Notes under the pieces: model-generated
Seen by the model: the letters and a program-made list of their open reading frames with translations, nothing else
Databases searched by the model: none
What the model was told of the DNA's origin: nothing
Program-made: the position numbers and the translations under genes
Shown here: positions 45,208-59,894 of the stretch, piece by piece
Numbering within the stretch: the stretch's first letter is position 1
Layout of the letters: each line of letters starts with the position of its first letter
Sequence record: NZ_LR134454.1
DNA length: 64,000 nt
Source: a plasmid
Reading direction: 5' to 3' (one strand)

Positions 45208-45282
45208 CCGCCGCTCGAGCAGGCGCGGGGGCGTCGTCGGGGCGGATCACAGCAGCAGGATCCGGTGCCGGGCTGATCCGGT

Positions 45283-45365
45283 GGGTATGCGCCCCACGCA
45301 TCGCCCGATCGGCAAAACACGGCTCTGAACTGGGATTTCAGGGGGTATGCGTGGCGCGCATAGCT
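45283..45365 (+). repeat. Copy A of an ~85-bp intergenic repeat element carrying two palindromes GGGTATGCG-N5-CGCAT(A/C)(C/G)C(C) exactly 60 bp apart
   Basis: GGGTATGCGccccaCGCATCGCC at 45283-45305 and GGGTATGCGtggcgCGCATAGC at 45343-45364. Located between the convergent 3' ends of the hypothetical gene and aftD. Confidence 0.5.
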
Positions 45366-45396
45366 ATTCAGTGCGACCACACTCCTCCTTCGCGGC

Positions 45397-48300
45397 TCAG
45401 TCCGTGGCCTCGCCGGTCCCATCGTCACCATCGGCCGTCGGCGCGCCACCGCCGCGGCGGTGCAGGAGCCGCACGGGCGGCACCGTCGACCAGGCCATCA
45501 GCAACACGCCGACCAGCGCCAGGCCCTGCGGCCACGGGCCGTGGCCCACGTAGCCGGCCTCGGCGTGCCACGGGCCCGTCGCCAGCAGCAGCATCCCGGC
45601 CAGCACGAAGCCGGACGAGCCGAACACGCGCAACGCCGCCCGACGGTCCGCCGACACGTGCAGTCCGGAGACCACCCAGGTCGCGAGTCCGGAGGCCGCC
45701 CACAGCGCGAGCCCCGGCCACCCGCTGAGCACGAACGCGACCGCGCCGATCCCGAGGCCCGCTGCGATACCCGGCTGCCAGGCCCGCACCGGTCCTCCGG
45801 AACCCCGCGGCCGCGATCCCGGGACCAGTGCCAGCGCGGCGAGGATCGCCAGCAGCGCGAGGCCGCCGAACAGCCCGATCCGGTAGGGCGCGTTGAGGGC
45901 GTACCGCAGGGTGACGGCGCCGTCGGTGCCCTGCGGCACCACCCAGCCCTGCTGCCACCCGTTGACGGTCACGGCCTTCAGCGGCGCGCCGTCCGGGCCC
46001 GTCGCCGCCCAGCCGGAGTTGCGGCTCTCGGGCACCACGAGCACCTGGTCGGCGTCGGCGCGGCTCACCGTCACGACGCGGCGATCCGGGGTCCAGCTCT
46101 GCACCTTCACGCTCTCGTCCCGCGGCGACGCCTCGGCGGCCGCGGGCGTGTCCAGCGCCAGCGAGTCCACGCTGAACGCGAGCCCCGGCGTCGCGACCAC
46201 CTGCGCCTTCCCGGCCGGCAGCGGCACCGGCGCGGGATCGCACGCCACCGCGCGGACGGGCGCGCCGTCGCGCATCTCCCGCGCTCCCGCCTCGATCCGG
46301 AAGCGCAGCACGCGGTCGCCGATCCGCACCGTCGGACCGGTCTCACACGGCACCACGACCGGACGGTCCGCGGGCGCGGGCTCCGAGCCGGGGACGGGCG
46401 CACCGTCGGGGCCGACGGCCCGCACTTCTGCCAGCCCGGGCGCCATCTTCTCCGGGAAGCCGAAGTCGTTGATGTTGATCCGCTCGTCCCAGTCGAGCAG
46501 CGAGATCGAGATCGAGTCGGTCACGGCCGGGTCGACCTTCACGGTGACGGAATCGCCCGCGGGCAGCTCGCGCACCTGCCTGCCGGTCCCCAGGTCGACG
46601 CCGATCCGCGTGGGCCGCGCGGGCGCCTCGCCGCGCGGCAGCCGCAGCGTCAGGCCGCCCACGACCTGCGGCGACGGCAGCCGCAGCCGCAGCACCGGCT
46701 TCGGCGACGTCGGCTCCGTGACCGACTGCGGCGCCGACCAGACCGTGTTGGGGTCCCCGTCGACGGCCGCGGCCGAGCTCGCCCGGCCGTCGCCCACCGC
46801 CGACTCCGCGAACGCCGACGGCGCGCCCGGCGCCCCGAGCAGCGCCGACAGCGCCTGCCCCGGGCGCGCGCGGACCGTCAGCGACGGTGTCACCGCAGGG
46901 GCACCGGGCCCGTCGACGGTCCGCCGCAGCGGCCCGGGCTCCTCCGGCCCGATCGCGATGTCGGCGCACTGCACCGGCCCGGGCGCGCCGTTCTCGCCGG
47001 GCGTGACGACGCAGCCGGACCGGCCCATCGTGTCCTGCCCGAACACCCAGCGCTGCGCGGGACCGGACGCGGGCAGCGCCACGTCGTGCCGCGCCGGAAT
47101 CGTCGCGCCGGACCGCGTGTCCGCGAGCTCGGCCTCCGTGATCGCGAACTGGTTGCCCCACGTGCGGTCGGCGGTCTCGGCGGCGGTGATCCGCACCCAC
47201 CGCGTCGGCTCCGACGGCGCGACCAGCGTGATCGGCGTCCCCGCCGTGACGGGATCGGAGTACACCGTGCCCGCCTCCGTCGTGATGAGGAGGCGCGTCA
47301 CCGCGGGACCCAGCGCCCGCCCGACGGTCACCGTCACCGACAGGTCCGCGCGGGGCTCGGGCAGCGTGAACTGCATCCACTGGTTGATGGCGTGGTCGAG
47401 GCCGGAGGACACCCACGCGGTGTTCTTGTCGCCGTCCACCGCGGCGGCCGTGCCCGCGCCGGGGAGCACGGTGCCGAGCTGCGTGGCGTCGGCGGCGGAG
47501 CTGGAGGCGGACACCGTCGCGCCCTGCCACGTCCCGTCGACCAGCCCCGCCGCCGGGTAGTCGGGCAGCCGGTTCAGCGTTCGACGGGGATCGGAGGCTG
47601 TGCGGATCGCGGAGCTGTGGTCGTCGACGCGGCCGTAGTCGGTCTCGCGGCGCTTGGGGGTATCGGTGACGGTCAGCGGGCCGTCGGGCAGCCCCGCGTC
47701 CTTCGCGTCGGAGGCGAGCAGCGCCGCGCCCAGCTCACGCCGGCCCGACGCGGCGGCGTCGGCCTGCAGCCCCAGCAGCGCCTCCGGCCCGCCCGCGACG
47801 CGCGGCATCGACGCCAGGTCGGCGACGTACGGCCCGGTGGGGGCGGCACCGTCGACCCGGTAGATCGTGATGGCGGGGAGCGGCGGCCGCAGCCCCGAGT
47901 CGACGACCACCTTCTCGACGGTCGGCGGGGCGATGTCCGCGCCGAACCGGGCGACCTCGCTGATCCCGGGCGAGCCGATGATCGCGGCGCGGGCCAGCGC
48001 AGGCCGCGCCGAGCGCGACGTTCCGGGATCGAGATCAGCGCGCAGCACGAGGTAGGAGATGCCCTGGCGGCGCAGCGTCGCGGCCAGGCCCGCCGACGGG
48101 GTACCGGCGCTGAACAGCCGCTGCACCGAGTCGAGGGCGCGGATCGCGCCGGGCGGGTTGAGCGGGATCGCGTCGCGCACCGCCCACGGCGTCTCGGCCA
48201 GGGGCTGGATCGGCTCGTCGCGCGTGAGGCCCCACAGCTGCGCACCGAACGGCGCGCCGGGCACGACGAGCGCGCGCTCGGCCCGGGCCTGGCCGGGGGC

Positions 48301-49686
48301 GGTCCCGGCGGCGTGCGCCGACAGCCAGTCCGCGGCCTGCGACCAGTAGTCGGGGATCTTGTCGTACGGCCCGCGGGGCGCGAGCTTGCCCGTCCACGCC
48401 ATGCCGCCCGCGAGCGCGAGCACCACGACCACGGCCAGGGCACCCGCCGCGAGCCGGTCCTGCTCGGGGTGCGCCAGGGCCCGCCGGACCTTCGCGAGGC
48501 CGACGGTGCCGGGCAGCGGCGCCCGGGCCAGCAGGTGTGCCATGCCCAGGACCAGCGGCAACCGCAGGAAGGGCTCGAGCTTGTAGACGTTGCGCAGGGG
48601 CGCGCCGACGCTGTCGAGGAAGACCCGCACCGGCTCGGCGAACGGCGAACCGAGGCCGCTGGCGTAGCCCGCGCCGATCCCCGCCAGGCCGACGAGCAGC
48701 ACCGTCGCCCAGACCCCGCGCTTGGGCATGCGGCGCATGGTGAGCCCGGCGATGCCGGCGCACGCGACCAGGCCGGTGACGACGACGGCGGCGGGGGAGG
48801 TGGTGAGCATGGCGCCGGCGCCGCGCTCGTCGGAGATGAACGGGCTCCACGACGTGGTGCCGCGCAGCACCTCCGGCACCGACGCCCACTGCGTGGTCGC
48901 GCGGGAGGACTCGATGAACTCGAGGAACGGCGGGCTGACGCGGCCCATGATGAGCAGCGGCACGATCCACCACGTGGTCGCCAGCGCGACGCACACCGCC
49001 CACCAGGCGCTGAACGTCCAGAAGCGGCGGGTCCCGGCGCCGAAGCGCACGTGCAGCAGCCACCACAGCGCGGCGACCGCGCACGCGAAGCCCGTGGCCA
49101 CGGCGTTGACCGCGCCCATGAGCGCGACCGCGACCGCCGAGCGGGCGGCCAGGTTCCGCAGCGGCACGTCCGCGCCCTGCAGGAGCTGCACCAGCGGCAG
49201 CAGCACCCACGGCGCGAGCATCACCGGCGCGGTCTCGGAGCTGATCGCGCCCAGCGTCGTGAGCACCTGCGGGGCCAGCACGAACGCCGCGGCCGCGACG
49301 ACCCGGCTGCCGCGCGAGCCGGTGCGCAGTGCCTCGGCGAGCCGGATGATCCCCCAGAAGCCGGCGAACAGGAGCAGCGCCCACCACAGGCGCTGCGTGA
49401 CCCACGGCGGGACGTGCAGGAACTGGCCCAGCGCGAAGAACGCGCCGTGCGGGAAGAAGTAGCCGTAGGCCTGGTTCTGCACCTGGCCGAGCGGGGACTG
49501 GCTGGACCAGACGTTGGCCGCGCGGGCGAGGAAGCCGATGGGGTTCGCCGTGAGATCGAGCTTGGTGTCGGCGACGACCTTCCCGGGCGCGCTGAGGAAG
49601 CTCAGCGCGAGCAGGGCGACGAACGCCCACGCGCCTGCGCGGCGGGTCAGGGGTTCGTCGGAGAAGTGGGGGCTACTTGTTGGCAC
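45397..49686 (-). CDS. aftD: Arabinofuranosyltransferase AftD (1429 aa)
   Basis: N-terminal LDLTANPIGFLARAANVWSSQSPLGQVQNQAYGYFFPHG signature of AftD. Size and polytopic N-terminal GT-C domain plus a large periplasmic domain. Small secreted protein gene upstream as in Rv0236c/Rv0236A. Confidence 0.9.
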   Translation of the reverse strand: MPTSSPHFSDEPLTRRAGAWAFVALLALSFLSAPGKVVADTKLDLTANPIGFLARAANVWSSQSPLGQVQNQAYGYFFPHGAFFALGQFLHVPPWVTQRLWWALLLFAGFWGIIRLAEALRTGSRGSRVVAAAAFVLAPQVLTTLGAISSETAPVMLAPWVLLPLVQLLQGADVPLRNLAARSAVAVALMGAVNAVATGFACAVAALWWLLHVRFGAGTRRFWTFSAWWAVCVALATTWWIVPLLIMGRVSPPFLEFIESSRATTQWASVPEVLRGTTSWSPFISDERGAGAMLTTSPAAVVVTGLVACAGIAGLTMRRMPKRGVWATVLLVGLAGIGAGYASGLGSPFAEPVRVFLDSVGAPLRNVYKLEPFLRLPLVLGMAHLLARAPLPGTVGLAKVRRALAHPEQDRLAAGALAVVVVLALAGGMAWTGKLAPRGPYDKIPDYWSQAADWLSAHAAGTAPGQARAERALVVPGAPFGAQLWGLTRDEPIQPLAETPWAVRDAIPLNPPGAIRALDSVQRLFSAGTPSAGLAATLRRQGISYLVLRADLDPGTSRSARPALARAAIIGSPGISEVARFGADIAPPTVEKVVVDSGLRPPLPAITIYRVDGAAPTGPYVADLASMPRVAGGPEALLGLQADAAASGRRELGAALLASDAKDAGLPDGPLTVTDTPKRRETDYGRVDDHSSAIRTASDPRRTLNRLPDYPAAGLVDGTWQGATVSASSSAADATQLGTVLPGAGTAAAVDGDKNTAWVSSGLDHAINQWMQFTLPEPRADLSVTVTVGRALGPAVTRLLITTEAGTVYSDPVTAGTPITLVAPSEPTRWVRITAAETADRTWGNQFAITEAELADTRSGATIPARHDVALPASGPAQRWVFGQDTMGRSGCVVTPGENGAPGPVQCADIAIGPEEPGPLRRTVDGPGAPAVTPSLTVRARPGQALSALLGAPGAPSAFAESAVGDGRASSAAAVDGDPNTVWSAPQSVTEPTSPKPVLRLRLPSPQVVGGLTLRLPRGEAPARPTRIGVDLGTGRQVRELPAGDSVTVKVDPAVTDSISISLLDWDERININDFGFPEKMAPGLAEVRAVGPDGAPVPGSEPAPADRPVVVPCETGPTVRIGDRVLRFRIEAGAREMRDGAPVRAVACDPAPVPLPAGKAQVVATPGLAFSVDSLALDTPAAAEASPRDESVKVQSWTPDRRVVTVSRADADQVLVVPESRNSGWAATGPDGAPLKAVTVNGWQQGWVVPQGTDGAVTLRYALNAPYRIGLFGGLALLAILAALALVPGSRPRGSGGPVRAWQPGIAAGLGIGAVAFVLSGWPGLALWAASGLATWVVSGLHVSADRRAALRVFGSSGFVLAGMLLLATGPWHAEAGYVGHGPWPQGLALVGVLLMAWSTVPPVRLLHRRGGGAPTADGDDGTGEATD

Positions 49687-49873
49687 CCGAGTCGTCGCGC
49701 TCGCCGTAGTTCGACGAGCCCTGCAGGAAGCCCTTGTCCTTCGACACGGTGTTGACGTCGGTGGTCGGCGACGTCTGCGCGACGGCCGCGCCGCTCACCA
49801 GTGCGAGGGCCACGGCGACGACGATGCCGGCGAGCGCGGCGGTGGCGCTGGCGATGATCGAGGTGCGGTCCAT
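49673..49873 (-). CDS. Small secreted/membrane-anchored protein (Rv0236A-like, 66 aa)
   Basis: MDRTSIIASATAALAGIVVAVALALVSGAAVAQTS signal/TM. Located immediately upstream of aftD. Confidence 0.5.
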   Translation of the reverse strand: MDRTSIIASATAALAGIVVAVALALVSGAAVAQTSPTTDVNTVSKDKGFLQGSSNYGERDDSGANK

Positions 49874-49883
49874 GCGGGAAAGT

Positions 49884-50384
49884 CTACAGGTCCAGCTCGG
49901 CGCAGCCCGACGGCACGATCATCACCGGCCGCTTGCATCCGCGCAGCACGTGCTCGGAAACGGACGAATGCCACAGCGACCGGATGCCCGAGACGCCGCG
50001 GCTCCCGGACACGATGACGTCCACGTCGAACGTGTCGGACGCGGCGATGAGCGCGGTCCACACGGTGGTGGACACCTCGATGAGCTCGCCGTGCGCGGTG
50101 AAGCCGGCGGCGGCCGCCAGGTCGACGCCCTGCTGGTTCGTCTTCTTGGCCTCGGCGTGCACGACGTCGCTCTCGCGGGTGAGTGCGGTCTCGGCGGCAC
50201 CGGCCCCCGCGACGCCGGACATGGCGGACAGGCGGGCGGCCTGATGGATCGTGGACTCCCACGCGGTGACGACGATCGCCTCGGCGTCGCGGCCCTGCGC
50301 GAGGACCTTGCTGGCGTACTTGACGGCGCGCTGGGAGGACTCGGAGCCGTCGTACGCGATCAGAACCTTGACGGGGACACTCAT
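49884..50384 (-). CDS. Universal stress protein (UspA family)
   Basis: VLIAYDGSESSQRAV...IVSGSRGVSGIRSLWHSSVSEHVL (USP ATP-binding motif G-x2-G-x9-G(S/T)). Start at internal ATG 50384. Confidence 0.75.
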   Translation of the reverse strand: MSVPVKVLIAYDGSESSQRAVKYASKVLAQGRDAEAIVVTAWESTIHQAARLSAMSGVAGAGAAETALTRESDVVHAEAKKTNQQGVDLAAAAGFTAHGELIEVSTTVWTALIAASDTFDVDVIVSGSRGVSGIRSLWHSSVSEHVLRGCKRPVMIVPSGCAELDL

Positions 50385-50527
50385 GCGGATCACCTCGATC
50401 TTCACGGTTACCTGATGCCTCCAGGCTACGCCGAAACGCCTCGGTTGCAAGATGCAAGTCCGGGCGAGTCCGGCGCGCCGCGAACGCGCCCCCGGGCTGG
50501 TTTTCCCGCGCCTGCCAGACTGCGCGC

Positions 50528-51451
50528 ATGCGAAGAAACCGCACCCCGCTCCGTCCCGTCGCCCTCGCCGCGGCCGTGCTCGCCGCCCTCGCCGTGACGC
50601 CCGCGACCGCGGGAGCGGCACCGTCGAACCAGGCCTGCGGGGGCTGGCGCACGACGGTCCTGCGGTCCGGCATGGGCGCCCTCGAGAACCTCGCCTTCGA
50701 CGGCACCGGCACCGTCTACCTGTCCCGGCAGAACGTGCTCACCGGGAAGGGGAGCCTGCTCGCGGGCGCCGCGCCCGGCGCGCTGCGCACCGTCGTCGAC
50801 CTGCCGAACCCCGGCGGGATCGTGGTCCGCGGCGGCGCGGTGCACGTCGCGACGGCGAACAGCGCGCCGTCGGGGCTGCTGGGGAAGCCGGACGGCACGG
50901 TGACCGTCGTGGACCCGGCCACCGGCGCGACCCGCATCGTCGCGTCCGGGCTGACCATGCCCAACGGCCTCGCGCTGCTGCCCGACGGCCGCGCCGTGAC
51001 CAGCACCGTCCTCGGCCCGCGGCAGGGGATCGTCGCGACCGCGCCCGGCGGCGTGCCCGTGCCCTTCGCGCTGCGCGGCGAGCCCGTCAACGGCCTCTGG
51101 TTCGACGGTGCCTCCGGCCGCCTCTGGGCCTCGACGGCCACCACCGCGACCACGCGGCTCTACGCCATCGATCCCGCGCATCCCGACCGGCCGCGCCGCT
51201 ACGAGGTGCCCGGGTTCGGGCCGGGGCACTTCGCCGACGACCTCACCGTGGGGCCCGACGGTGCCGTCTACGCCGCGCTCGACCTGCCGGGGACCGTCGT
51301 GCGGCTCGACCCGGCGACCGGCGCGCAGTGCACGATCGCGACCGGTCACCGCGGCGTGACGTCGGTGCGGTTCGGCCGCGGCCCGGGCTGGGACGGCGCC
51401 GCGCTGTACGCGACGACCCTCACCGGCAAGCTGCTTCGGCTGGCCCGGTAG
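50528..51451 (+). CDS. Secreted SMP-30/gluconolactonase/LRE-like beta-propeller protein
   Basis: Signal peptide MRRNRTPLRPVALAAAVLAALAVTPATAGA. Repeated Gly/Asp-rich propeller blades. Confidence 0.55.
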   Translation: MRRNRTPLRPVALAAAVLAALAVTPATAGAAPSNQACGGWRTTVLRSGMGALENLAFDGTGTVYLSRQNVLTGKGSLLAGAAPGALRTVVDLPNPGGIVVRGGAVHVATANSAPSGLLGKPDGTVTVVDPATGATRIVASGLTMPNGLALLPDGRAVTSTVLGPRQGIVATAPGGVPVPFALRGEPVNGLWFDGASGRLWASTATTATTRLYAIDPAHPDRPRRYEVPGFGPGHFADDLTVGPDGAVYAALDLPGTVVRLDPATGAQCTIATGHRGVTSVRFGRGPGWDGAALYATTLTGKLLRLAR

Positions 51452-51478
51452 CGGCGGCGATCTGACAGACTGGCCCCG

Positions 51479-52642
51479 ATGCAGAAGTTTCGGAACCTCA
51501 CGATCCTGGTGATCGCCGCGGCCGGCGTCGCGGCGTGCGGCCCGTCGAACCCCGACGCCGCGCTGTCCACGACGACCGTGGCGCAGGCCCCGTCGGCGAC
51601 GAGGTCCGCGGCACCGTCGTCGGGCCCGGGACGCCCGGTGACCTGCGCTTCGGACTTCCTCGCGAAGCTCTCGGTGCGGGAGAAGGCCGGGCAGTTGCTC
51701 ATGGTCGGCGTGAAGGACGCGGCCGACGCCCGGCGCGCCGTGCAGCAGGGCGTGGGCGGCGTGTTCATCGGTAGCTGGACCGACAAATCCGTGTTCTCGG
51801 GCGGGACGCTGCAGGGCGTCGCGAAGGCCGGGAAGGTGCCGGCGATGGTCTCCGTCGACGAGGAGGGCGGCCGCGTCTCCCGCGTGCCCGGCGCGAACCT
51901 CGTCTCGGCGCGCGAGCTGGCGCGCACGAAGACCGTCGCGCAGGCGCGAGCCGAGGGCGCGCGCGTCGGCAAGCTGTTGAAGTCGATGGGGATCACCGTG
52001 GACTTCGCCCCCGACGCCGACGTCTCCGCCCAGTCCGACGACTCCGTGATCGGCGACCGCTCGTACTCGAACGACCCGGCCGTGGTCGTGAAGTACTCGC
52101 AGGCCTTCGCCGCGGGCCTGCGCGACGGTGGCGTGTACCCGGTGTTCAAGCACTTCCCGGGGCACGGCAGCTCGTCGGGCGACTCGCACCAGGGCGGGGT
52201 GAGCGTGCCGCCGCTGAACGCCTTGAAGGCCAAGGACCTCGTGCCCTTCCGCGCCGCGGTCGACACCGGCGACGCGGGCGTCATGGTCGGCCACCTGACG
52301 GTGCCCGGCCTCACGGAGCCGGGCCTGCCGACCAGCCTCAGCCCGGCGACGATGCGCCTCCTGCGCGACGGTGCCGGGTACGGCGCGAAGCCCTTCGACG
52401 GGCCGATCTTCACCGATGATCTCTCCGGGATGAAGGCGATCACCGACCGGTTCAGCGTGCCGCAGGCCGTCGCGAAGTCGCTGGAGGCGGGCGCCGACGT
52501 CGCGCTGTGGATCTCCACCGATCAGCTGGGCGCGGCGCTCGACGCCGTGGAGGCCTCGGTGAAGGCGAAGCGCATCACGATGCGGCGCCTCGACGATTCC
52601 GTGCTCCGCGTGGCGCGGGTGAAGCACGCCGTACGCTGCTGA
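51479..52642 (+). CDS. lpqI: Lipoprotein beta-N-acetylhexosaminidase (GH3 family, LpqI/NagZ-like)
   Basis: Lipobox LVIAAAGVAAC. GH3 motifs KHFPGHG and catalytic-region context. Position matches Rv0237. Confidence 0.85.
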   Translation: MQKFRNLTILVIAAAGVAACGPSNPDAALSTTTVAQAPSATRSAAPSSGPGRPVTCASDFLAKLSVREKAGQLLMVGVKDAADARRAVQQGVGGVFIGSWTDKSVFSGGTLQGVAKAGKVPAMVSVDEEGGRVSRVPGANLVSARELARTKTVAQARAEGARVGKLLKSMGITVDFAPDADVSAQSDDSVIGDRSYSNDPAVVVKYSQAFAAGLRDGGVYPVFKHFPGHGSSSGDSHQGGVSVPPLNALKAKDLVPFRAAVDTGDAGVMVGHLTVPGLTEPGLPTSLSPATMRLLRDGAGYGAKPFDGPIFTDDLSGMKAITDRFSVPQAVAKSLEAGADVALWISTDQLGAALDAVEASVKAKRITMRRLDDSVLRVARVKHAVRC

Positions 52643-52721
52643 TTCCGAACGGATTTCACCGGAACTTACTTGCGAGTAACCTCGTGGGCTAGGATCTGAC
52701 TCGAGAGTAAGGAGGACGCCG

Positions 52722-53318
52722 ATGGCCGGTGGGACGAAGCGTTTGCCGCGCGCGGTACGCGAGCAGCAGATGCTGGACGCCGCCATCAAGGTGTTCTCGC
52801 GCAACGGCTTCTACGAGACGTCGATGGACGCGGTGGCCCGTGAGGCGCAGATCAGCAAGCCGATGCTGTACCTGTACTACGGGTCCAAGGACGAACTCTT
52901 CGCCGCGTGCGTCACGCGCGAGGCGGGCAAGTTCATGCGCAGCATCGAGTTCGACGCCAGCCCCACGCTGCCGCCGTCGCAGCGCCTGCGCTCGGTGATC
53001 GCCGGCTTCCTCAAGTACGTCGACCAGAACCGCGACGCCTGGCGCGTGATGTACCGCGAGACCACCGGCCAGGCCGCCTTCGCCGCGCTCTCCGAGAACA
53101 GCCGCGAGCGGGTCGTCGAGATGACCGCGGTGCTGCTCCGCGAGGCCGCCAAGTACGCGCCGGAGGACACGGATTTCGAGCTCTACGCCGTCGCCCTCGT
53201 CGGCTCCGGCGAGGCGATCGCGGACCGTCTGGCCACCGGCAAGGTCGAGCTCGACCGCGCCGTCGAGATCATGACCTCGTTCCTCTGGGGCGGCATCCGC
53301 GGCGAACGCCCGGAGTGA
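52722..53318 (+). CDS. TetR-family transcriptional regulator (Rv0238-like)
   Basis: HTH LDAAIKVFSRNGFYETSMDAVAREAQISKPMLYLYY. Confidence 0.85.
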   Translation: MAGGTKRLPRAVREQQMLDAAIKVFSRNGFYETSMDAVAREAQISKPMLYLYYGSKDELFAACVTREAGKFMRSIEFDASPTLPPSQRLRSVIAGFLKYVDQNRDAWRVMYRETTGQAAFAALSENSRERVVEMTAVLLREAAKYAPEDTDFELYAVALVGSGEAIADRLATGKVELDRAVEIMTSFLWGGIRGERPE

Positions 53319-53319
53319 G

Positions 53320-53883
53320 TCAGTCGGACAGTTCTTGCCACCACCGGCCGGAGAGGTGCGTGACCCTGGTCCGAGCCGCGTCGGTCGGGGTCGCGCCGTC
53401 GGGGTGGTAGGCCAGGCGCGTGGTACTGATCGACGGGCCGGCGATGTGGAACCGCACGACACTGTCGGTCTTGTACGCCGAGTAGACCTGCTGAGTTCCG
53501 ATCTTCCGTGATTCGTAGTCGACGACGTCCGCCCGCGGGTCGGCGAGCATCTGCTCGGCGACGGCCCGCAACCGGGGTTCGTCGTAGTTCCACCGGGCCT
53601 CGGGCACCGCGTTCGTCACGCCCAGCCCGATCGCGATCGCCCCGATCAGCGGAATGATCAGCAACCGCCACGCGAACCGGCGGATCGTGCGCGCCCAGGC
53701 CACCAGGTACACCAGCCAGCCCAGGAACAGAACCACACCGCCGAGGAGCGACAGCACGCCCAGGCCGGGGTCGCCGGGGAAGGTGCCTGCCCAGAGGAGC
53801 GCCGCGGCGTCGAGGACGAGAAAGACCGCCAGTCCGTACCCGAAGTGGGTCCAATTGCGCTGCGCCTCACGATCTGCCGTCAT
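53320..53883 (-). CDS. Hypothetical membrane protein (187 aa, 3-4 TM)
   Basis: ORF with TM segments LAVFLVLDAAALLWAG, VLSLLGGVVLFLGWLVYLVAWA and LLIIPLIGAIAIGLGV. Confidence 0.4.
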   Translation of the reverse strand: MTADREAQRNWTHFGYGLAVFLVLDAAALLWAGTFPGDPGLGVLSLLGGVVLFLGWLVYLVAWARTIRRFAWRLLIIPLIGAIAIGLGVTNAVPEARWNYDEPRLRAVAEQMLADPRADVVDYESRKIGTQQVYSAYKTDSVVRFHIAGPSISTTRLAYHPDGATPTDAARTRVTHLSGRWWQELSD

Positions 53884-53895
53884 GCATCGACACTA

Positions 53896-53972
53896 CGAGA
53901 TGCTGCATGGCCCGAGCGCGGGAATGTCGACGCCGCTGCGTCCAGTGACGGGTATGCGTTCCGCGCATCGCT
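53896..53972 (+). repeat. Copy C (degenerate) of the ~85-bp palindrome-pair element
   Basis: The second palindrome is intact (GGGTATGCGttccgCGCATCGCT, 53950-53972). The first site is degraded (GAGATGCTGCATGGCCCG). Confidence 0.35.
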
Positions 53973-54025
53973 CTTCTGAACGACTACTGCACCCCCGCGG
54001 CCCGCGCGCCCGCACCCGGAGACGA

Positions 54026-54060
54026 CGGTGCCCGCCGCGGCCGAAGCCGGGCGGGCACCG
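54026..54060. terminator. Hairpin downstream of htdX (minus strand)
   Basis: cggtgcccgcc-N13-ggcgggcaccg, a perfect 11-bp stem. Confidence 0.5.
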
Positions 54061-54073
54061 TCGGAGAACAGGG

Positions 54074-54964
54074 CTACAACGGCGTGACGGTGGCCGTCAC
54101 GTGCGGGAAGCCCTTCTTGAGGTCCTTCGCGACGATCTCGGTACCGCCGGTCGCCTCGTCGCGCGAGACGTACAGGCCGATCTTCGCCGGCAGGATCACC
54201 GGGCGGCCGAAGCGCACGTGGTGCACGACCGCGTCGGGGATGTGGCCCTCGACGACGCGCAGCATCGCCGCGGCCGTCCACGCGCCGTGCGCGATCGAGG
54301 ACGGGAAGCCGAACGCCTTGCCGCCGATCGGCGACATGTGGATCGGGTTCCGGTCGCCGCTGACGCCGGCGTAGCGGCGGATCAGGCCGCCGTCGGCCGA
54401 GAGCAGCGCGTCGGGGGCGCCGGGGCGGCCCTCCTTCGGCGCGGGCCCCGACGGCTCGCCGGACAGGGACGTCCGCTGCTGGATCAGCATCGTCGACACC
54501 TCGGAGGCCACCGACGCGCCGGACGCGTCCGTGAACTCGGTGGTGAAGTCGATGAGCATGCCCTTGCGGTGCTCGCGGAGGTTGCCCACCGAGGTGCGCA
54601 GCGTGAGCTTCTCGCCCGGCTCGACCCGGCGGCGCCGCGTGATCGTGTTCTCCACGTGCACCGACCCCACCGCCGCGGCGGGGAAGTCGTCGGCGAGGAA
54701 CAGGTCCATGATCAGCGGGAAGGAGAGCACGTAGAGGTACATCACGGGTACCTCGCCGGTGTTCTTGAGCCCGACGACCTCGCAGTACTCGCCGACCCGC
54801 ACGGGATCCACGTCGACGGCGAGCTCGACGGTCCGGTCCGGCAGCGGGGTCTCCGGCTTGAGCGGGCCCTGCTTGCCGATCACGGGCAGGATGCCGCGCA
54901 GCCCGCGCGTGAGCACGGACAGGCTCGACGGCGGCGCCTGCAGGACGGTGGTCTTGGCGGCCAT
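54074..54964 (-). CDS. htdX: 3-hydroxyacyl-thioester dehydratase, MaoC/double-hotdog type (HtdX-like)
   Basis: 296 aa double-hotdog protein with the C-terminal MaoC motif GDRNPIHMSPIGGKAFGFPSSIAHG. Synteny with fabG4. Confidence 0.75.
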   Translation of the reverse strand: MAAKTTVLQAPPSSLSVLTRGLRGILPVIGKQGPLKPETPLPDRTVELAVDVDPVRVGEYCEVVGLKNTGEVPVMYLYVLSFPLIMDLFLADDFPAAAVGSVHVENTITRRRRVEPGEKLTLRTSVGNLREHRKGMLIDFTTEFTDASGASVASEVSTMLIQQRTSLSGEPSGPAPKEGRPGAPDALLSADGGLIRRYAGVSGDRNPIHMSPIGGKAFGFPSSIAHGAWTAAAMLRVVEGHIPDAVVHHVRFGRPVILPAKIGLYVSRDEATGGTEIVAKDLKKGFPHVTATVTPL

Positions 54965-54966
54965 GA

Positions 54967-56325
54967 TCAGGCCCCCAGCAGGCTCTGACCGCAGACGCGC
55001 ACGACGTTGCCGGTCACCGCGGCCGAGGACGGCGCGGCGAAGTAGGAGATGGTCTCCGCGACGTCGACGGTCTGGCCGCCCTGCTGCAGCGAGTTCATGA
55101 GGCGGCCGGCCTGGCGGGTGGCCAGCGGGATCGCGGCGGTCATGGCGGTCTCGATGAAGCCGGGCGCCACGGCGTTGATGGTGATGTTCTTCTTCGCCAG
55201 GACCGGGGTGTAGGCGTCGACGATGCCGATGACGCCGGCCTTGGTCGCGCCGTAGTTGGTCTGGCCGCGGTTGCCCGCGATGCCGGCGATCGACGAGACG
55301 TCGACGACGGCGCCGCCCTCGTTCAGGGCGTCCTCGGCGAGCAGGGCGTCGACCAGCTGCTTCGGCGCCTTGAGGTTGACGGCCATGACCGAGTTCCAGC
55401 GACCCTCGTCCATGTTGGCGAGCAGCTTGTCGCGGGTGATACCGGCGTTGTTGACGATGATGTCGAGGCCGCTGTGGCGCGACTTCACCAGTTCGGCGAT
55501 CTTCTTGCCCGCGTCCTCTGCGGTCACGTCGAGGGGCAGCGCGGTGCCGCCGACCTTGTTCGCGACGGCGGACAGGGCCTCGCCGGCGGCGGGGATGTCG
55601 GCGGCGATGACATGGGCGCCGTCGCGCGAGAGGACCTCGGCGATGGTGGCGCCGATGCCGCGGGCGGCGCCGGTGACCAGCGCGACCTTGCCGGCGAGCG
55701 GCTTGTCCCAATCGGCGGGCGCGGCGGCGTCCTTGTCGGTGATGCGGATGACCTGCGCGTCGACGTAGGCCGACTTGCCCGACAGGAGGAAGCGCAGCGT
55801 CGAGGCCAGGCCCGAGGCGCCGGTGGCGGCGTCCGGGTGCACGTAGACGAGCTGCGCGGTGGCGCCGTCGCGGAGCTCCTTGGCGACGGAGCGGGTGAAG
55901 CCCTCGAGGGCGCGCTGGACGATGTGCTCGTCGAGGTCCTCGATCAGCTCGGGCGTGGTGCCGAGCACCACGACGCGGGCGCTGTTGCCCAGCGTGCGCA
56001 TCTGCGGGCCGAAGAACTCGTAGAGGCCGACGAGCTCGTCGATCGACGTGATGCCGGTGGCGTCGAAGACCGCGCCGCCCAGCTTCTCGGCGCCGCGGGC
56101 GCCGCCGTTGTTGACGACGAGGTCGTAGTCCGCGAGCAGCTCGCGCACGGGCTCGACGAGGCGGCCCTTGCCGCCGAGGAGGACGGGGCCGGCGAGCGCG
56201 GGCTTGCCGGCCTGGTAGCGGCGCAGGACCGGCGGCTGCGGCAGGCCGAGTCGGCTGGCCAGGAAGGAGCCGGGGCCCGACTTCACGAAGGCCGCGTAGA
56301 AGTCCGTGCTGGGTGCATCAGGCAT
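54967..56325 (-). CDS. fabG4: 3-oxoacyl-ACP/CoA reductase, high-molecular-weight two-domain FabG (FabG4-like)
   Basis: 452 aa. C-terminal [23 protein letters not shown] and YGATKAG. The N-terminal pseudo-SDR flavodoxin-like half is typical of FabG4. Confidence 0.85.
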
Positions 56326-56430
56326 GTGAGGTACCTCATCCGTGTGGGGTTCCGATAGGCTATCGACAAGCAACTTACTCCAGAGTAAGAATACTCGGTA
56401 GTAGCAACCCTCGATCACTGGGAGAAACCC

Positions 56431-57714
56431 GTGGCAAACATCGAAACCCGTCCGGTCGCCATCCTCGGCGGCAACCGGATCCCCTTCGCGCGTTCGGACC
56501 GTGCGTACGCGAAGGCCAGCAACCAGGACATGTTCACCGCCGCCCTCAATGGTCTCGTGAGCCGCTTCAACCTGCAGGGCGAGCAGCTGGGCGCCGTGGT
56601 CGGTGGCGCCGTGCTCAAGCACAGCCGCGACTTCAACCTGATCCGCGAGTCGGTGCTCGGCAGCCCGCTCAGCCCCTACACCCCTGCTTTCGACGTGCAG
56701 CAGGCCTGCGCCACCGGCCTGCAGGCGATCAACGCCGCGGCCCAGGGCATCCAGCTCGGCCGCTACGAGGCGGCCATCGGCGGCGGCGTCGACACCACCT
56801 CCGACGCGCCGATCGGCGTCTCCGAGGGCATGCGCAAGGTGATGCTCGAGCTCAACCGCGCGTCGAGCACCGTCGACCGCCTCAAGCTGGTCGGCAAGCT
56901 CCCGGCCAACCTGGGCATCGACATCCCGCGCAACGGCGAGCCCCGCACCGGCATGTCGATGGGCGAGCACGCCGCCATCACCGCCAAGGAGATGGGCGTC
57001 TCCCGCGCCGAGCAGGACGAGCTGGCCTACCTCAGTCACACCAACATGGCGGCGGCCTACGACCGCGGCTTCTTCGAGGACCTGATCACCCCGTACCTGG
57101 GCCTGACCCGCGACGACAACCTGCGCCCGGGCAGCTCCGTCGAGAAGCTCGCCACGCTCAAGCCCGTCTTCGGCGTCTCGCTGGGCGACGCGACGATGAC
57201 GGCCGGCAACTCGACGCCGCTTACCGACGGCGCGTCGACGGTGCTGCTGTCCTCCGACGAGTGGGCGGCCGAGCGCGGCCTGCCCGTGCTCGCGTACCTC
57301 AAGGACGTGGAGTACTCGGCCGTGGACTACGTCGGCGGCAAGGACGGCCTGCTCATGGCGCCGACGTACGCCGTGCCGAAGCTGCTGGCCCGCAACGGCC
57401 TCACGCTGCAGGACTTCGACTTCTACGAGATCCACGAGGCCTTCGCCTCCGTCGTGCTCGCGACGCTGCAGGCCTGGGAGTCGCCCGAGTACTGCAAGGA
57501 CCGCCTGGGCCTGGACAAGCCGCTCGGCTCGATCGACCGCAGCAAGCTCAACGTCAACGGCTCGTCGCTGGCGGCGGGCCACCCGTTCGCCGCGACCGGC
57601 GGCCGCATCGTGGCCTCCGCCGCGAAGCAGATCAAGGAGAACGGCGGCGGTCGCGCGCTGATCTCGATCTGCGCCGCCGGTGGTCAGGGCATCACCGCCA
57701 TCATCGAGGGCTGA
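56431..57714 (+). CDS. fadA2: Acetyl-CoA C-acyltransferase (thiolase I)
   Basis: Thiolase active-site Cys region ([12 protein letters not shown]), C-terminal [17 protein letters not shown] and CAAGGQG. Synteny with fabG4. Confidence 0.85.
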
Positions 57715-57716
57715 TG

Positions 57717-57738
57717 CCCCGGGGCGCGCGCCCCGAGG
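57717..57738. terminator. GC palindrome directly after the fadA2 stop
   Basis: ccccggggcgcgcgccccgagg. Confidence 0.35.
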
Positions 57739-57775
57739 ACTGATGCTGCCGGCCCCGGCCGCCTAAGCTGGTGTC

Positions 57776-58198
57776 ATGACCGCGACGGACGATCTGATCG
57801 AGAGGATCCTGCGCGACTACGACACCATCACGGTGGTCGGGGCCAGCGTCGATCCGGCGAAGGCGGCCCACGACGTGCCCGCCTACATGCAGCACCGCGG
57901 ATGGCGCATCATCCCGGTGAACCCGCACGCCGACGAGATACTCGGCGAGCCGGTGTACCGCACCCTGGCCGACGTCCCGGAACAAGTCGGCCTGGTCGAC
58001 GTCTTCCGGCCCGCCGAGTTCACGCCCGACATCGCCCGGCAGGCCGTCGCCGCCGGGGCGACGGCGCTGTGGCTGCAGCTGGGCATCCGCTCGGCCGAGG
58101 CGCGCGAGATCGCCGAGTCCGCCGGGCTGCTCTACGTCGAGGACCGCTGCCTCATCATCGAACAGCGCCGCACGCAGATCTCCAGGAGGAGCGCATGA
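57776..58198 (+). CDS. CoA-binding domain protein (YccU/YneT-like)
   Basis: ITVVGASVDPAKAAHDVPAYMQHRGWRIIPVNP is characteristic of the CoA-binding Rossmann family; 140 aa. Confidence 0.75.
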   Translation: MTATDDLIERILRDYDTITVVGASVDPAKAAHDVPAYMQHRGWRIIPVNPHADEILGEPVYRTLADVPEQVGLVDVFRPAEFTPDIARQAVAAGATALWLQLGIRSAEAREIAESAGLLYVEDRCLIIEQRRTQISRRSA

Positions 58199-58695
58199 CC
58201 TTCGGCATCGTCGTCGTCGCCGTGGTCGCGGTCGTGGCCGTCCTCATGCTGATCGGCGTCGTGTGGTTCCTCCGCGACTCCAACAAGCGGATCAAGGACT
58301 TCGCCAACTCCGGCGATCTGATCCCCGGCCGTCCCGGCCGCGCGCCCGCCGAGTGGGCGAACGCCACCTCCACCGAGGCGCTCCTGCACCAGCGCACCCG
58401 CTACGCCATCGCCGACGTGCACCGCGGCGCCTTCGCCCCAGCCGTCCCGCCGCCCGCGGATTCCGCGATCAACGGCTCGGAGTCCGACCTCGCCGCCCTC
58501 GACGACGCCGTCTTCGCCCTCGACGACCGCATCATCGCCGCCGCGCAGCTCTCGGGCGAGGAGCGCACGAAAGCCCTGGGCGAGCTGGAACCCAAGGTCG
58601 CGGCTCTGGAAGGCCTCACCGGGAAGCTCTGGGATGCCCCGTCGGCCCAGCGCCGCCCCCTCATCGACGGCGTGACCGCTACGCTCCTCCGCTGA
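58195..58695 (+). CDS. Hypothetical N-terminally membrane-anchored protein (166 aa)
   Basis: MTFGIVVVAVVAVVAVLMLIGVVWFL TM anchor. RBS aggagga. ATGA overlap with the upstream gene. Confidence 0.45.
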   Translation: MTFGIVVVAVVAVVAVLMLIGVVWFLRDSNKRIKDFANSGDLIPGRPGRAPAEWANATSTEALLHQRTRYAIADVHRGAFAPAVPPPADSAINGSESDLAALDDAVFALDDRIIAAAQLSGEERTKALGELEPKVAALEGLTGKLWDAPSAQRRPLIDGVTATLLR

Positions 58696-58732
58696 GCTCG
58701 TCGCCCGCGCGGGGCGGGGTGTTGCTCGGAGC

Positions 58733-58815
58733 AGTTATGCGTCCCACGCATACCCCCGAACCCCGCAGCTAGACGCTGTCTTCTTCGGGCCGGGCCATGC
58801 GTCTGGCGCATACCC
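58733..58815 (-). repeat. Copy B of the ~85-bp palindrome-pair element, inverted relative to copy A
   Basis: TATGCGtcccaCGCATACCCCC at 58733-58755 and CATGCGtctggCGCATACCC at 58793-58815, again 60 bp apart. The reverse complement aligns with copy A along its length. Confidence 0.5.
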
Positions 58816-58871
58816 TCGTCCTCCAGCCTGACGGTCCGCCGCCCGCCACGGCGATCTGGCCCGCCCCCATA

Positions 58872-59894
58872 TCAGCGCCCGATGACCTCCGCCGCCCGCG
58901 GGCGACTCACGGCCGCGCGGAACCGCTCCACCCCGACGTGCAGCCCCCACGACAGCACGATGGTGATCGCGGTGGTCACCACGACGATGGGCCACGTGGA
59001 ACCGGTGAACAGCGACCAGCCGAACAGGTCCAACACCACGAACTCCATGACAATCACGTGGAGGAGGAAGAACTCGTAGCTGATGGAGCCGAGCCACACC
59101 ATCGGCCTCGAACCCAGCACGCGCGACGGCCCGGTCGCGAACGCGGCCACCAGCAGCCCGCCGATCAGCGCCTCCAGCAGGAACTTCGTCACCCCCTGCG
59201 CCGGGGTCGGCAGCCGGAGGTCGATCGGCCCGGCGACCGGGGTCAGCAGCACGCCGTAGGCGACCGCCGCGGCGAGCAGCAGAGGCCACCGCGGCAGCCG
59301 CACCCGGTCGACCAGCAGCGCCACCGCCATGCCCGCGGCGAACGCGGCGGCGAACCCGGGCGGCCACGACCGCGCCGTCTTCCCGAAGACCTCCGTCGCG
59401 GTCACCAGCACCAGCCAGCCCACGGACAGGGCGACCATCGCCGCCGGCACCGTCCACGCCCGGCGGGCGCGCAGCAGCCACAGCCCCAGGAGTGGAAGTG
59501 CCAGGTAGAAGGCGACTTCCACGCACATGCTCCACATCTGCGTCAGGCCCGTGTGCACGTGACCGACGCCGTAGATCTGCGTGAAACTCAGGTGCCGGAG
59601 GTAGTCGCCCCACCCGTGCCCGTGCGGCGAACCGTCGGGACGCCAGAGGTAGATGACGTACACGACGGTGACCACCGCCCAGTACGCGGGCAGGATCCGC
59701 CACGCCCGCGAGACGGCGTACCGCCGCACGTCCGGAGGCGTGCCCCCGGCCCGTGCGCGGATCCACGGCCGCACCAGCAGGAACCCCGACAGCGCGAAGA
59801 ACACGGGCACCGCGGTCTCGAGCCGCGCGTAGGCGGCGCCGAGCGCATCCGGGGTGAAGTCACCGCCCCAGAACGCGGCGTGCGTGACGCACAC
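58872..59894 (-). CDS. Acyltransferase family 3 membrane protein with an anomalous N-terminus (no start codon before the conserved motif)
   Basis: From the GTG at 59894 the product begins CVTHAAF... The conserved AT3 N-terminal motif (HVPALTGLRALAAFG) is encoded in frame immediately upstream and abuts the TGA stop of yhgE, with no ATG/GTG/TTG in between. Confidence 0.6.
   Translation of the reverse strand: MCVTHAAFWGGDFTPDALGAAYARLETAVPVFFALSGFLLVRPWIRARAGGTPPDVRRYAVSRAWRILPAYWAVVTVVYVIYLWRPDGSPHGHGWGDYLRHLSFTQIYGVGHVHTGLTQMWSMCVEVAFYLALPLLGLWLLRARRAWTVPAAMVALSVGWLVLVTATEVFGKTARSWPPGFAAAFAAGMAVALLVDRVRLPRWPLLLAAAVAYGVLLTPVAGPIDLRLPTPAQGVTKFLLEALIGGLLVAAFATGPSRVLGSRPMVWLGSISYEFFLLHVIVMEFVVLDLFGWSLFTGSTWPIVVVTTAITIVLSWGLHVGVERFRAAVSRPRAAEVIGR

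Follow-up and report, generated by a model that had tools for sequence, protein, structure and literature searches.

A Tsukamurella-specific family of oriented, paired-palindrome repeats located mainly at convergent gene junctions

The region analyzed here (the window) is a 64-kb stretch of Tsukamurella tyrosinosolvens DNA, in which a family profile search found three copies, and only three, of a short repeated element (arms A, B, and C). The exact core ATGCG-N5-CGCAT occurs five times in the window against 0.09 expected, and none of 100 shuffled sequences reached five. These five palindromes form two pairs, in arms A and B, plus one site from a degenerate copy, arm C. Arm A is intact and occupies positions 45281-45382 on the plus strand (nhmmer E=8e-28), running from its head at 45281 to a tail that stops at 45382, 14 nt short of the aftD stop codon (45397-45399). 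On the plus strand it comprises palindrome 1 (GGGTATGCG-CCCCA-CGCATCGCC, 45283-45305), two middle motifs recognized in an alignment of 27 copies (an AAAA run and TCTGAACTGG, 45314-45333), palindrome 2 (GGGTATGCG-TGGCG-CGCATAGCT, 45343-45365), and a tail (ATTCAGTGCGACCACAC, 45366-45382) that reads GUGUGGUCGCACUGAAU on the aftD sense strand. Orthologues of arm A are present in M9C, T. conjunctivitidis, T. pseudospumae, and NPDC003166. A 225-aa orphan membrane-like ORF (44530-45207, plus strand), with homologues found only in T. tyrosinosolvens and T. sputi, fills the place where four related species carry the partner of arm A.

Arm B is also intact and lies inverted relative to arm A on the minus strand (58718-58817, nhmmer E=2.6e-24), with 92% identity to its M9C orthologue. 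Its palindromes, read on the minus strand, are GGGTATGCG-CCAGA-CGCATGGCC (palindrome 1, 58793-58815) and GGGTATGCG-TGGGA-CGCATAACT (palindrome 2, 58733-58755), and its tail points at the 3' end of a 166-aa gene (58195-58695). A GC hairpin, hp0 (CGCCCGCGCGGGGCG, 58702-58716, plus strand), is located between the stop codon of this gene and the arm B tail, and comparison with a metagenome strain revealed a deletion scar beside the arm (58869-58872). Arm C (53897-53987, plus strand, nhmmer E=1.7e-8) is decaying, with 12 of its 39 block positions changed. Palindrome 1 is a remnant (53897-53912) in which GAGATGC and TGCATGG border a 6-bp deletion, the intact palindrome 2 lies at 53950-53972, and the tail (CTCTTCTGAACGACTAC) points at the 3' end of a MaoC gene (54074); both palindromes are intact in the orthologues from M9C and T. 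ocularis. On its head side lies a 187-aa ORF (53320-53883, minus strand), between arm C and a TetR gene (52770-53318), which is absent at this site in T. paurometabola, T. serpentis, TY48, and NPDC003166. Arms A and B are situated between convergent 3' ends, whereas arm C has the MaoC 3' end on one side and the beginning of the 187-aa ORF on the other. A first-pass annotation of this DNA had already placed all five palindromes in these positions, within intergenic gaps and with two of the copies between convergent 3' ends, and had noted the single intact palindrome of a degenerate arm C, the alignment of the reverse complement of B with A along the whole element, and a palindrome spacing of exactly 60 bp in both A and B, which we measured from start to start; on each of these points our analysis agrees with it.

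The dimensions given in that annotation, a ~85-bp element with 9-bp palindrome arms, had to be revised. Conservation continues further, and the unit is an oriented arm of ~100-112 bp whose architecture was derived from the alignment of 27 copies, before the catalogue grew to 41. From head to tail, an arm consists of gGGGTATGCG-N5-CGCAT, an A-run, TCTGACCTGC, GGGGTATGCGTGG..CGCAT, and a U-rich tail, after which there is often a GC hairpin. The two palindromes of one arm are direct copies on the same strand, 58-61 bp apart. Only ATGCG/CGCAT (5-6 bp) is truly palindromic, and no site has nine complementary bases per arm. Since GGGT is kept on the 5' side only of each palindrome, each site, and hence the whole element, is oriented. 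The N5 centres are variable and the segment between the palindromes carries conserved motifs (family consensus GAAAA ... TCTGACCTGC), and a conserved stretch, GCTTCCGTGAAC(G/A)AC(T)AC, extends ~20 nt beyond palindrome 2 and finishes in one of two kinds of tail end, ..AACAC or ..GACTAC. No conserved bases were found upstream of the arm head in the 27 copies. It is hardly conceivable that the arms represent a miniature CRISPR-like array or a chance similarity. Type I-E CRISPR arrays do have a period of 58-61 bp, equal to that of the arms, but here the "spacer" is conserved and the centre of the "repeat" variable, which is the reverse of CRISPR, and no array exceeds two units; chance is excluded by the core count relative to shuffled sequences and by the profile matches. 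We also considered a small ORF inside the arm and rejected it, as the reading frames are broken by indels in the variable segments.

The conserved blocks are under purifying selection. When blocks defined on M9C paralogues were scored on orthologues of other species, 25 of 195 block positions differed compared with 150 of 325 positions elsewhere, i.e., ~3.5 times less change (P=6e-16). A palindrome site measures 19-23 bp (for example, GGGGTATGCGTGGGACGCAT) and is a putative protein site. It is the invariance of the half-sites that suggests binding by a protein. In 403 kb of Tsukamurella DNA, 92 palindrome sites with at most one mismatch were detected, 78 of them within arms, and no stand-alone palindrome was observed upstream of any gene or at a promoter. 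Non-orthologous arms are only 55-80% identical, and so nothing points to recent bursts. We dropped the idea that M9C arms undergo gene conversion, because an apparent difference in the multiple alignment (83% vs 58%) became 79% vs 79% in pairwise comparison.

We also examined how widely the family is distributed. A total of 41 arms were catalogued in the 403 kb of Tsukamurella DNA, where they occupy at least 11 independent sites; the sources are one metagenome and no fewer than eight named species or strains of Tsukamurella, and none was found outside the genus. Among 185,579 species genomes, a strict two-palindrome pattern matched 13 loci, all of them in Tsukamurella. A looser pattern matched 74 loci in metagenomes, four of which also matched the profile, all on Tsukamurella-like contigs of one sample; most looser-pattern matches in metagenomes and viral contigs proved to be an unrelated 20-bp tandem satellite and were discarded. 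The phage collection contained no match to the family, and the sole match in the plasmid collection was a 67-kb T. tyrosinosolvens record designated "plasmid 3", which bears housekeeping genes. The strict pattern gave at most 6 matches per species genome, it caught only ~2 of 8 independently found arms, and 3 of the 4 pattern-positive arms in the metagenome strain were already known. From this low yield and partial recovery we estimate ~5-25 arms per genome, a figure that is an extrapolation given that the sole whole-genome scan used the strict pattern. The arms are thus a low-copy repeat family specific to Tsukamurella, and the copies first noticed in the window belong to a wider set, which removes one of the ways in which the first-pass annotation saw its proposal failing. 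Rfam yielded nothing for the whole window at the gathering score and only noise for arm A and one doublet at E<=10, and full-text literature searches with motif strings and for Tsukamurella repeats returned nothing relevant. As far as Rfam, the phage and plasmid collections, and full-text search can tell, the repeat is undescribed; the first-pass annotation had likewise not recognized it as a described mycobacterial repeat.

The usual layout is two arms placed head-to-head as an inverted doublet of 300-430 bp, with the tails toward gene 3' ends, and such a minus-then-plus pair was present at nine sites. Two M9C doublets at unrelated loci share 82% identity over ~270 bp, including the non-conserved centre, and doublets fold as long hairpins (z=-8.2 and -7.6). 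The arms prefer convergent gene junctions, which account for 8 of the 11 independent sites (P ~0.001 against a 25% expectation), and the tail is directed toward a gene 3' end in 25 of 27 copies, the exceptions being at two sites (L007a and L010). The flanking genes are unrelated in function and include aftD and genes for acyltransferases, MaoC, aldehyde dehydrogenase, histidine ammonia-lyase, racemase, and phytoene synthase. These positions bear directly on whether the palindrome pairs could be operators of a transcription factor controlling neighbouring genes, a reading we regard as very improbable. Two sites per arm with the size and symmetry expected for an HTH dimer, the low copy number of the family, and the TetR gene near arm C would all suit an operator. 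However, the convergent position and functionally unrelated neighbours do not, and neither do the lack of stand-alone upstream sites in the 403 kb, a consensus scan that found no sigma-70-type promoter in or next to the arms, and the retention of the same neighbouring genes in species without the element. The operator reading, which the first-pass annotation had raised as a way in which its own proposal might fail, is therefore already largely refuted by position.

Structure at the RNA level was evaluated separately. A hairpin of the hp0 type accompanies most tails and folds better than random sequence only on the gene-sense strand (p=7e-6), where it is followed by the T-enriched, unstructured tail (e.g., GUGUUGUUC or GUAGUCGUUC). 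A hairpin within the tail itself was rejected, since tails fold worse than random sequence, and no canonical terminator (hairpin plus T-run) was found in the arms by scan. Compared with shuffles, whole single arms form somewhat more stable folds (z from -1.1 to -3.1). Because the palindrome stems are invariant, covariation cannot be scored, and RNAalifold was equivocal between local hairpins and long-range pairing. A single long hairpin formed by both palindromes of an arm was rejected given that their N5 centres are not complementary, and, with invariant stems and non-complementary "loops", no evidence emerged for the stem-loop RNA structures suggested by the first-pass annotation. It is unlikely that the arms serve as 3'-UTR RNA elements whose hairpins would shield the upstream gene's mRNA against 3' exonucleases or guide how it is processed, a role reported for REP and ERIC sequences of enterobacteria. 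Such a role would fit arms that always lie on the sense strand downstream of the stop codon, a flanking hairpin that is stable strand-specifically, and palindromes that can each form a 5-6 bp stem, together with the slight folding excess of whole arms. Nevertheless, these stems are short and weak and, being invariant, show no covariation; the one-sided conservation of GGGT is not accounted for by pairing; the palindromes would fall beyond the transcript end if the hairpin and tail terminate transcription; and an Rfam match is absent even at E<=10. Two other candidates were also rejected: GGGTAT as a SigF/SigB-type -10, ECF-type (TGAAC), or TANNNT -10 element has, on inspection by eye, no conserved partner hexamer at a suitable spacing on either strand, in agreement with the negative consensus scan, and a hammerhead or other ribozyme (GAAA...CUGA) would require a different motif order and spacing and has no Rfam match.

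Copies of the element are gained and lost between strains and species, and presence/absence polymorphism was observed at orthologous sites. T. paurometabola and T. serpentis lack the element at sites A and B, and in both species the convergent genes there overlap directly. Two species have an empty racemase site, whereas M9C has ~430 extra bp at that position. This is the only well-resolved insertion, and ~95 bp beyond the arms are included in it, so it may reflect recombination rather than transposition; no clear duplication is visible between the filled and empty sites of these species, which have diverged by 7-13%. At site B, a T. tyrosinosolvens-like metagenome strain (98% identical) carries 266 bp at 58869-58872 that contain the arm B partner and most of the doublet centre. 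An imperfect direct repeat, GGGGG(T/C)GG, flanks this within-species indel, and only part of the doublet has been removed, which points to deletion. Besides such gains and losses, unrelated genes are found between or beside arm heads at five places; the five different cargoes occupy four sites, and site C holds three of these cargoes in different lineages. ORFs lying between arms are orphans of membrane-like character, or else a MerR gene paired with a hydrolase gene, with no transposase among them, and cargo genes adjoin the heads in either orientation. A possible likeness of two arm-associated ORFs, the 225-aa ORF of the window and a 336-aa ORF at L012, was checked and discarded, as no similarity was found. 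Comparison of orthologous sites among relatives thus bears out the initial impression that the elements stand where gene content changes. As for a source of mobility, no transposase, recombinase, or RAYT was identified by Pfam among the neighbours of the window arms and of L002, L003, L004, L007, L011, and L012; no RAYT occurs in the annotated T. tyrosinosolvens record, no autonomous relative with a transposase appeared among the 41 arms, and neither target-site duplications nor clean terminal inverted repeat tips were seen.

These data also bear on a host-encoded and immobile cis element, in which the palindromes would bind a chromosomal protein and act as an orientation-dependent roadblock or insulator after weak terminators, preventing read-through from one convergent gene into the other, much like the stoperators of mycobacteriophage L5. 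We consider this rather unlikely. It would be consistent with purifying selection acting in situ on the blocks, the low copy number and fixed orientation relative to the adjacent gene, the position right after a gene-sense hairpin and T-enriched tract, the near confinement of the palindrome to arms, and the failure to find a transposase or target-site duplication. On the other hand, copies at unrelated loci share a non-conserved centre and filled/empty polymorphism exists, so that some copying mechanism would still be needed; moreover, L007a and L010 are not at 3' ends, cargo of either orientation lies beside the heads, and there is no known binder.

Compared with known systems, the family adds one modest case to an established kind of element, the bacterial intergenic repeat. 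The ERIC/IRU sequences of enterobacteria, reportedly imperfect palindromes of ~127 bp, are intergenic, close to gene ends, of low to moderate copy number, and conserved at orthologous sites, and have no known transposase. Tsukamurella arms resemble them in being non-coding, ~100-130 bp long, capable of a long imperfect hairpin, present in few copies near gene ends, and kept at orthologous sites in different species. They differ in phylum and have no sequence similarity to them, and each arm has two direct short palindromes, with inversion arising from two arms around a variable, gene-holding centre. With REP, BIME, and REPIN sequences the arms share a short imperfect palindrome (20-40 bp in REP elements), a conserved 5' flank, inverted pairing, and a position after gene 3' ends that is often between convergent genes. 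However, the flank is GGGT rather than the GTAG of REP (in the family, GTAG is confined to one subfamily, at the distal end of its tail), the palindromes within an arm are direct rather than inverted with conserved motifs between them, and no RAYT was seen beside the arms. REP and REPIN families are recognized by hundreds of copies per genome, whereas the arms number tens at most. Like MITEs and MICs, the family has long inverted arms, no coding capacity of its own, and presence/absence polymorphism, and, like MICs, it has passenger genes between arms (TY48, L012, and window sites A and C). In contrast to those elements, no target-site duplication, defined terminal nucleotides, or autonomous parent was found for the arms, and, unlike in MICs, cargo may have entered doublets that were already in place instead of travelling with them. 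PATE sequences derived from IS200/IS605 similarly have like subterminal hairpins at both ends on the same strand, but no conserved 4-5 nt target is present 5' of the left end of the arm. The earlier proposal of a REP/MITE-like mobile element is therefore partly upheld: the inverted-repeat architecture, dispersal, and presence/absence polymorphism stand, whereas REP-like copy number, target-site duplication, transposase, and RAYT were not found.

Two further systems are similar in position. TRIT is a Mycobacterium-restricted single hairpin that overlaps the stop codon and numbers 147 copies in M. tuberculosis; it is centred ~8 nt before the stop codon, and a binding factor was proposed by its authors (PMC3152330). 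According to a Term-seq preprint, the overlap of TRIT with mapped 3' ends is minimal (10.1101/2022.06.01.494293). By description, the likeness is conceptual: both are genus-restricted conserved palindromes at gene termini in high-GC genomes of the same order, but the Tsukamurella arm is multi-part, ~110 bp long, and low-copy. The stoperators of cluster A mycobacteriophages, reportedly described in mycobacteriophage L5, are 13-bp asymmetric sites with a known repressor. They share with the arms oriented (here putative) protein sites, short intergenic gaps at gene ends, and copy numbers in the low tens; they are located in phage genomes, whereas the Tsukamurella sites are palindromic, paired, and without a phage match. 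By analogy, the arms could be candidate arrays for a dedicated protein that marks convergent junctions, a reading that seems to us distinctly doubtful. In one version, the arms may form a stoperator-like chromosomal roadblock and so bring transcription to an end in DNA that has few canonical terminators; in the other, they may be recombination sites that capture genes between two heads, like attC or pdif gene cassettes.

The explanation that we favour, with a probability of about one half, is that the arms are a non-autonomous element of mobile origin, similar to MITE, REPIN, or ERIC sequences, with putative protein-binding palindromes, and that they have been kept as a module at gene 3' ends. 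Both the mode of movement and the 3'-end function are what we infer from the arrangement of the copies. The natural unit would be the head-to-head doublet, which forms a long inverted repeat. Such a doublet would be copied to new places, nearly always convergent junctions, where each tail and its hairpin would abut a gene 3' end. Once resident, a doublet can lose one arm by deletion, as at window site B, or take up unrelated genes between its heads, as seems to be the case at window sites A and C. The palindromes would most likely bind a sequence-specific protein, either the transposase or recombinase of the unit itself or a host protein. Resident copies might then be retained because, where two genes converge, the hairpin, tail, and bound palindromes could act together as a module for transcript ends or for insulation.

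Canonical terminators are rare in high-GC Mycobacteriales, a group in which transcript termination and the remodelling of gene neighbourhoods are both poorly understood and to which Tsukamurella, an opportunistic pathogen that also causes foaming of sludge, belongs. With tens of sites per genome, the family is small enough to be tractable; its sites have a sharply defined palindrome under selection and lie where genes converge and gene content changes, and the arms are usable as species- or strain-variable markers for Tsukamurella. If they are only decaying mobile DNA, the list of intergenic repeats in bacteria would simply gain one more routine entry; the roadblock or gene-capture version, if true, would represent a mechanism not described in Actinobacteria.

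The window has a G+C content of 72.6% and comes from Tsukamurella tyrosinosolvens, an entry of which its AftD protein matches at 100% identity. At up to three mismatches it holds five matches to the 23-mer GGGTATGCG-N5-CGCATACCC (0.08 expected), and there are likewise five of the exact core ATGCG-N5-CGCAT (0.09 expected). The five palindromes lie where the first-pass annotation had placed them, and the two sites of copy A (45283-45365, + strand) and of copy B (58733-58815, inverted relative to A) are spaced by exactly 60 bp. A and B align end to end, and copy C (53897-53987), whose first palindrome carries a 6-bp deletion and which is decaying, with changes at 12 of the 39 block positions conserved within the repeat, can be aligned with both. 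The 9-bp palindrome arms of that annotation, however, shrink to 5-6 bp of true complementarity per half-site. GGGT is kept on one flank of the site only, and therefore both the site and the element are directional. According to third-position G+C, a codon-usage gene caller and Pfam, A is flanked by a 225-aa orphan ORF (44530-45207, + strand) and the 3' end of aftD (45397-49686, - strand), and B by the 3' ends of a 166-aa gene (58195-58695, + strand) and an Acyl_transf_3 gene (58872-59894, - strand). C separates the start of a 187-aa ORF (53320-53883, - strand) from the 3' end of a MaoC dehydratase gene (54074-54964, - strand). The MaoC gene abuts a 452-aa short-chain dehydrogenase gene (54967-56325) in a separate frame; the pair (54074-56325) resembles a split multifunctional hydratase-dehydrogenase, and the split is present in every Tsukamurella locus fetched.

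The wider family suspected from these copies does exist. A genome collection was scanned with the strict pattern GGGTATGCG-N5-CGCAT-N35-50-GGGTATGCG, and all 13 loci obtained belong to Tsukamurella (T. ocularis, sp. M9C, sp. PLM1, T. conjunctivitidis and T. pseudospumae). T. tyrosinosolvens is missing from this list although A and B match the pattern exactly, so this species was probably absent from or masked in the collection, and the per-species counts (at most six matches per genome) exclude it. A profile built from aligned copies yielded 27 arms (oriented repeat units) in the window and the 13 loci, the window containing only the three known ones, and further loci extended the catalogue to 41 arms in 403 kb. 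The consensus begins with gGGGTATGCG-N5-CGCATcGCy, about 10 variable nt and GAAAA, and continues with about 5 nt, TCTGACCTGCA, about 8 nt, GGGGTATGCGTGGnaCGCATnGCT and the tail TCCgTGAAC(G/A)AC(T)AC; palindrome spacing is 58-61 bp. With up to one mismatch, 78 of the 92 palindrome sites in the 403 kb fall within arms, and those outside are mostly intragenic one-mismatch matches. Two co-directional genes of T. tyrosinosolvens are separated by a solitary, perfectly symmetric site, GAAGCCATGCG-TCGCG-CGCATGGCTTC (NZ_LR134445.1 63319-63345; 23319-23345 of fetched locus L015); it matches the profile only over palindrome 2 and the tail and could be the element in minimal or eroded form.

Eight arms were found via aftD synteny, independently of the strict pattern, and two of them match it; in a metagenome strain, three of four pattern-positive arms were already known. 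From these figures and the strict-pattern counts we infer roughly 5-25 arms per genome, the density in the 13.5-kb stretch of the window being unusually high. A looser pattern gave 74 metagenome loci, four of which match the arm profile; their contigs come from one sample, are high in GC and are 97-99% identical to T. tyrosinosolvens. About 70 others (among L025-L098; e.g., L032 1642-1924) consist of a 20-bp palindromic unit, TATGCGG-N3-CCGCATA-N3, repeated in long tandem arrays (periods 20, 40 and 80) on unrelated contigs of 0.30-0.57 G+C, many of them from marine samples, and do not match the Tsukamurella profile. One viral match to the looser pattern failed the profile, phage genomes gave no match, and the sole match in plasmid collections is a 67-kb T. 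tyrosinosolvens record, 'plasmid 3', with housekeeping genes. Neither Rfam nor a full-text literature search returned the family, in agreement with the first-pass annotation, which did not recognise it as a described mycobacterial repeat.

The tail points towards the 3' end of the adjoining gene in 25 of 27 copies, usually 0-120 bp away. At nine sites, where genes converge, two arms face each other head to head (- then +), forming doublets with gaps of 46-311 bp (1.5 kb at one of them). With orthologous sites merged, 8 of 11 independent sites are convergent, two co-directional and one divergent (25% convergent expected; binomial P ~0.001). The invariant half-sites argue for a putative sequence-specific protein partner of the palindromes, as an operator would also have; the arms nevertheless sit mostly at 3' ends, and their neighbours share no function (aftD, acyltransferases, MaoC, an aldehyde dehydrogenase beside a PIN toxin gene, histidine ammonia-lyase, arginase family, racemase, phytoene synthase and hydrolases), and an operator is much less likely than the other readings. 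Blocks were defined on nine paralogous arms of M9C, and differences were counted between orthologous arms of other species: 25 of 195 in blocks versus 150 of 325 in other columns (odds ratio 0.17, P=6e-16). Selection therefore keeps the palindromes and a few other bases unchanged at their sites, and elsewhere the arm diverges almost to saturation.

Empty sites, partner-arm losses and cargo genes at A, B and C bear out the proposed association with rearranged positions. The 24 kb around aftD are free of arms in T. paurometabola and T. serpentis, where the convergent genes of sites A and B directly overlap. A doublet is present at site B in M9C, in T. ocularis and in a metagenome strain with 98% identity to the window; 266 bp (one arm and most of the centre) are missing from the window and a 99% identical MAG, and the imperfect direct repeat bounding this gap identifies it as a within-species deletion. 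Site A holds a doublet in four species; in the window the 225-aa ORF replaces the partner arm, and in T. sputi a homologue is found without an arm. Among 5.8 billion proteins, homologues of this ORF occur only in T. tyrosinosolvens and T. sputi (77% identity), at one common site, and its Pfam matches are weak (Yip1/DUF6989-like). At site C, two arms bracket MerR and hydrolase genes in T. sp. TY48, NPDC003166 has one arm without cargo, and the T. tyrosinosolvens group has one arm and the 187-aa ORF; L012, a T. ocularis locus, has two arms with a 336-aa membrane-like ORF between them. None of these ORFs is transposase-like.

The doublet seems to be copied as a unit, as indicated by three observations. 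Two M9C doublets at unrelated loci (L009, site B; L011, racemase site) share 82% identity not just in the arms but through the centre, which is otherwise not conserved; doublets form long hairpins when folded (z=-8.2 and -7.6); and the racemase site of M9C holds about 430 bp more than the empty sites of T. sp. NPDC003166 and T. serpentis, namely the doublet flanked by ~68 nt and 27 nt. The insertion point directly follows a conserved hairpin, 9 nt before the convergent gene's stop codon. Comparison of filled and empty sites revealed no convincing target duplication, and the extra flank of this one resolved insertion makes recombination possible. Downstream of the Asp/Glu racemase gene, a non-coding stretch of ~130 bp is conserved in three Tsukamurella species (loci L011 5930-6080, L021 4800-4950 and L022 4800-4920), with a terminator-like hairpin CTGACCGCAGC/GCTGCGGTCAG followed by UAGUCAUUU; it has no Rfam match at E<=1 and may be a small RNA. 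If the repeat were instead a roadblock or insulator site belonging to the host alone, the convergent placement and block conservation would also be expected; given the empty sites and doublet copying, this is considered the less likely reading.

Scans for sigma-70-type promoters and canonical terminators in or beside the arms found none. On the gene-sense strand, the 38 nt beyond the tail are more stably folded than random segments (-15.7 vs -12.1 kcal/mol, p=7e-6; opposite strand, p=0.07), and the 24-nt tail is less structured than random. In gene direction, the GC hairpin comes after the stop codon, and an unstructured, T-enriched tract (GUGUUGUUC or GUAGUCGUUC) separates it from the two palindromes, a layout resembling a weak terminator in front of sites of protein size. 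Both this position and the strand specificity of the hairpin speak for a putative role at transcript ends. The same hairpin would suit a 3'-UTR RNA element, which we regard as somewhat less probable than the host site. The stem-loop RNA structure proposed earlier is unsupported: the stems are invariant across copies and so offer no changes in which covariation could show, RNAalifold does not discriminate between local and long-range pairing, and the centres of an arm's two palindromes are not complementary.

The evidence fits an inverted-repeat element of low copy number, non-autonomous and of the MITE/REPIN/ERIC kind, which would settle at convergent gene junctions and afterwards be retained. 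Family, architecture and dynamics speak for the REP/MITE-like character first suggested; high copy number and target duplications are not supported, and neither a transposase nor defined tips were found for the arms. By description only, its nearest conceptual relative is TRIT, the Tuberculosis Rho-independent terminator motif of Mycobacterium (same order), likewise genus-restricted, palindromic, gene-terminal and of unproven function. The general kind of element is known, and what is new is a previously undescribed repeat of Tsukamurella.
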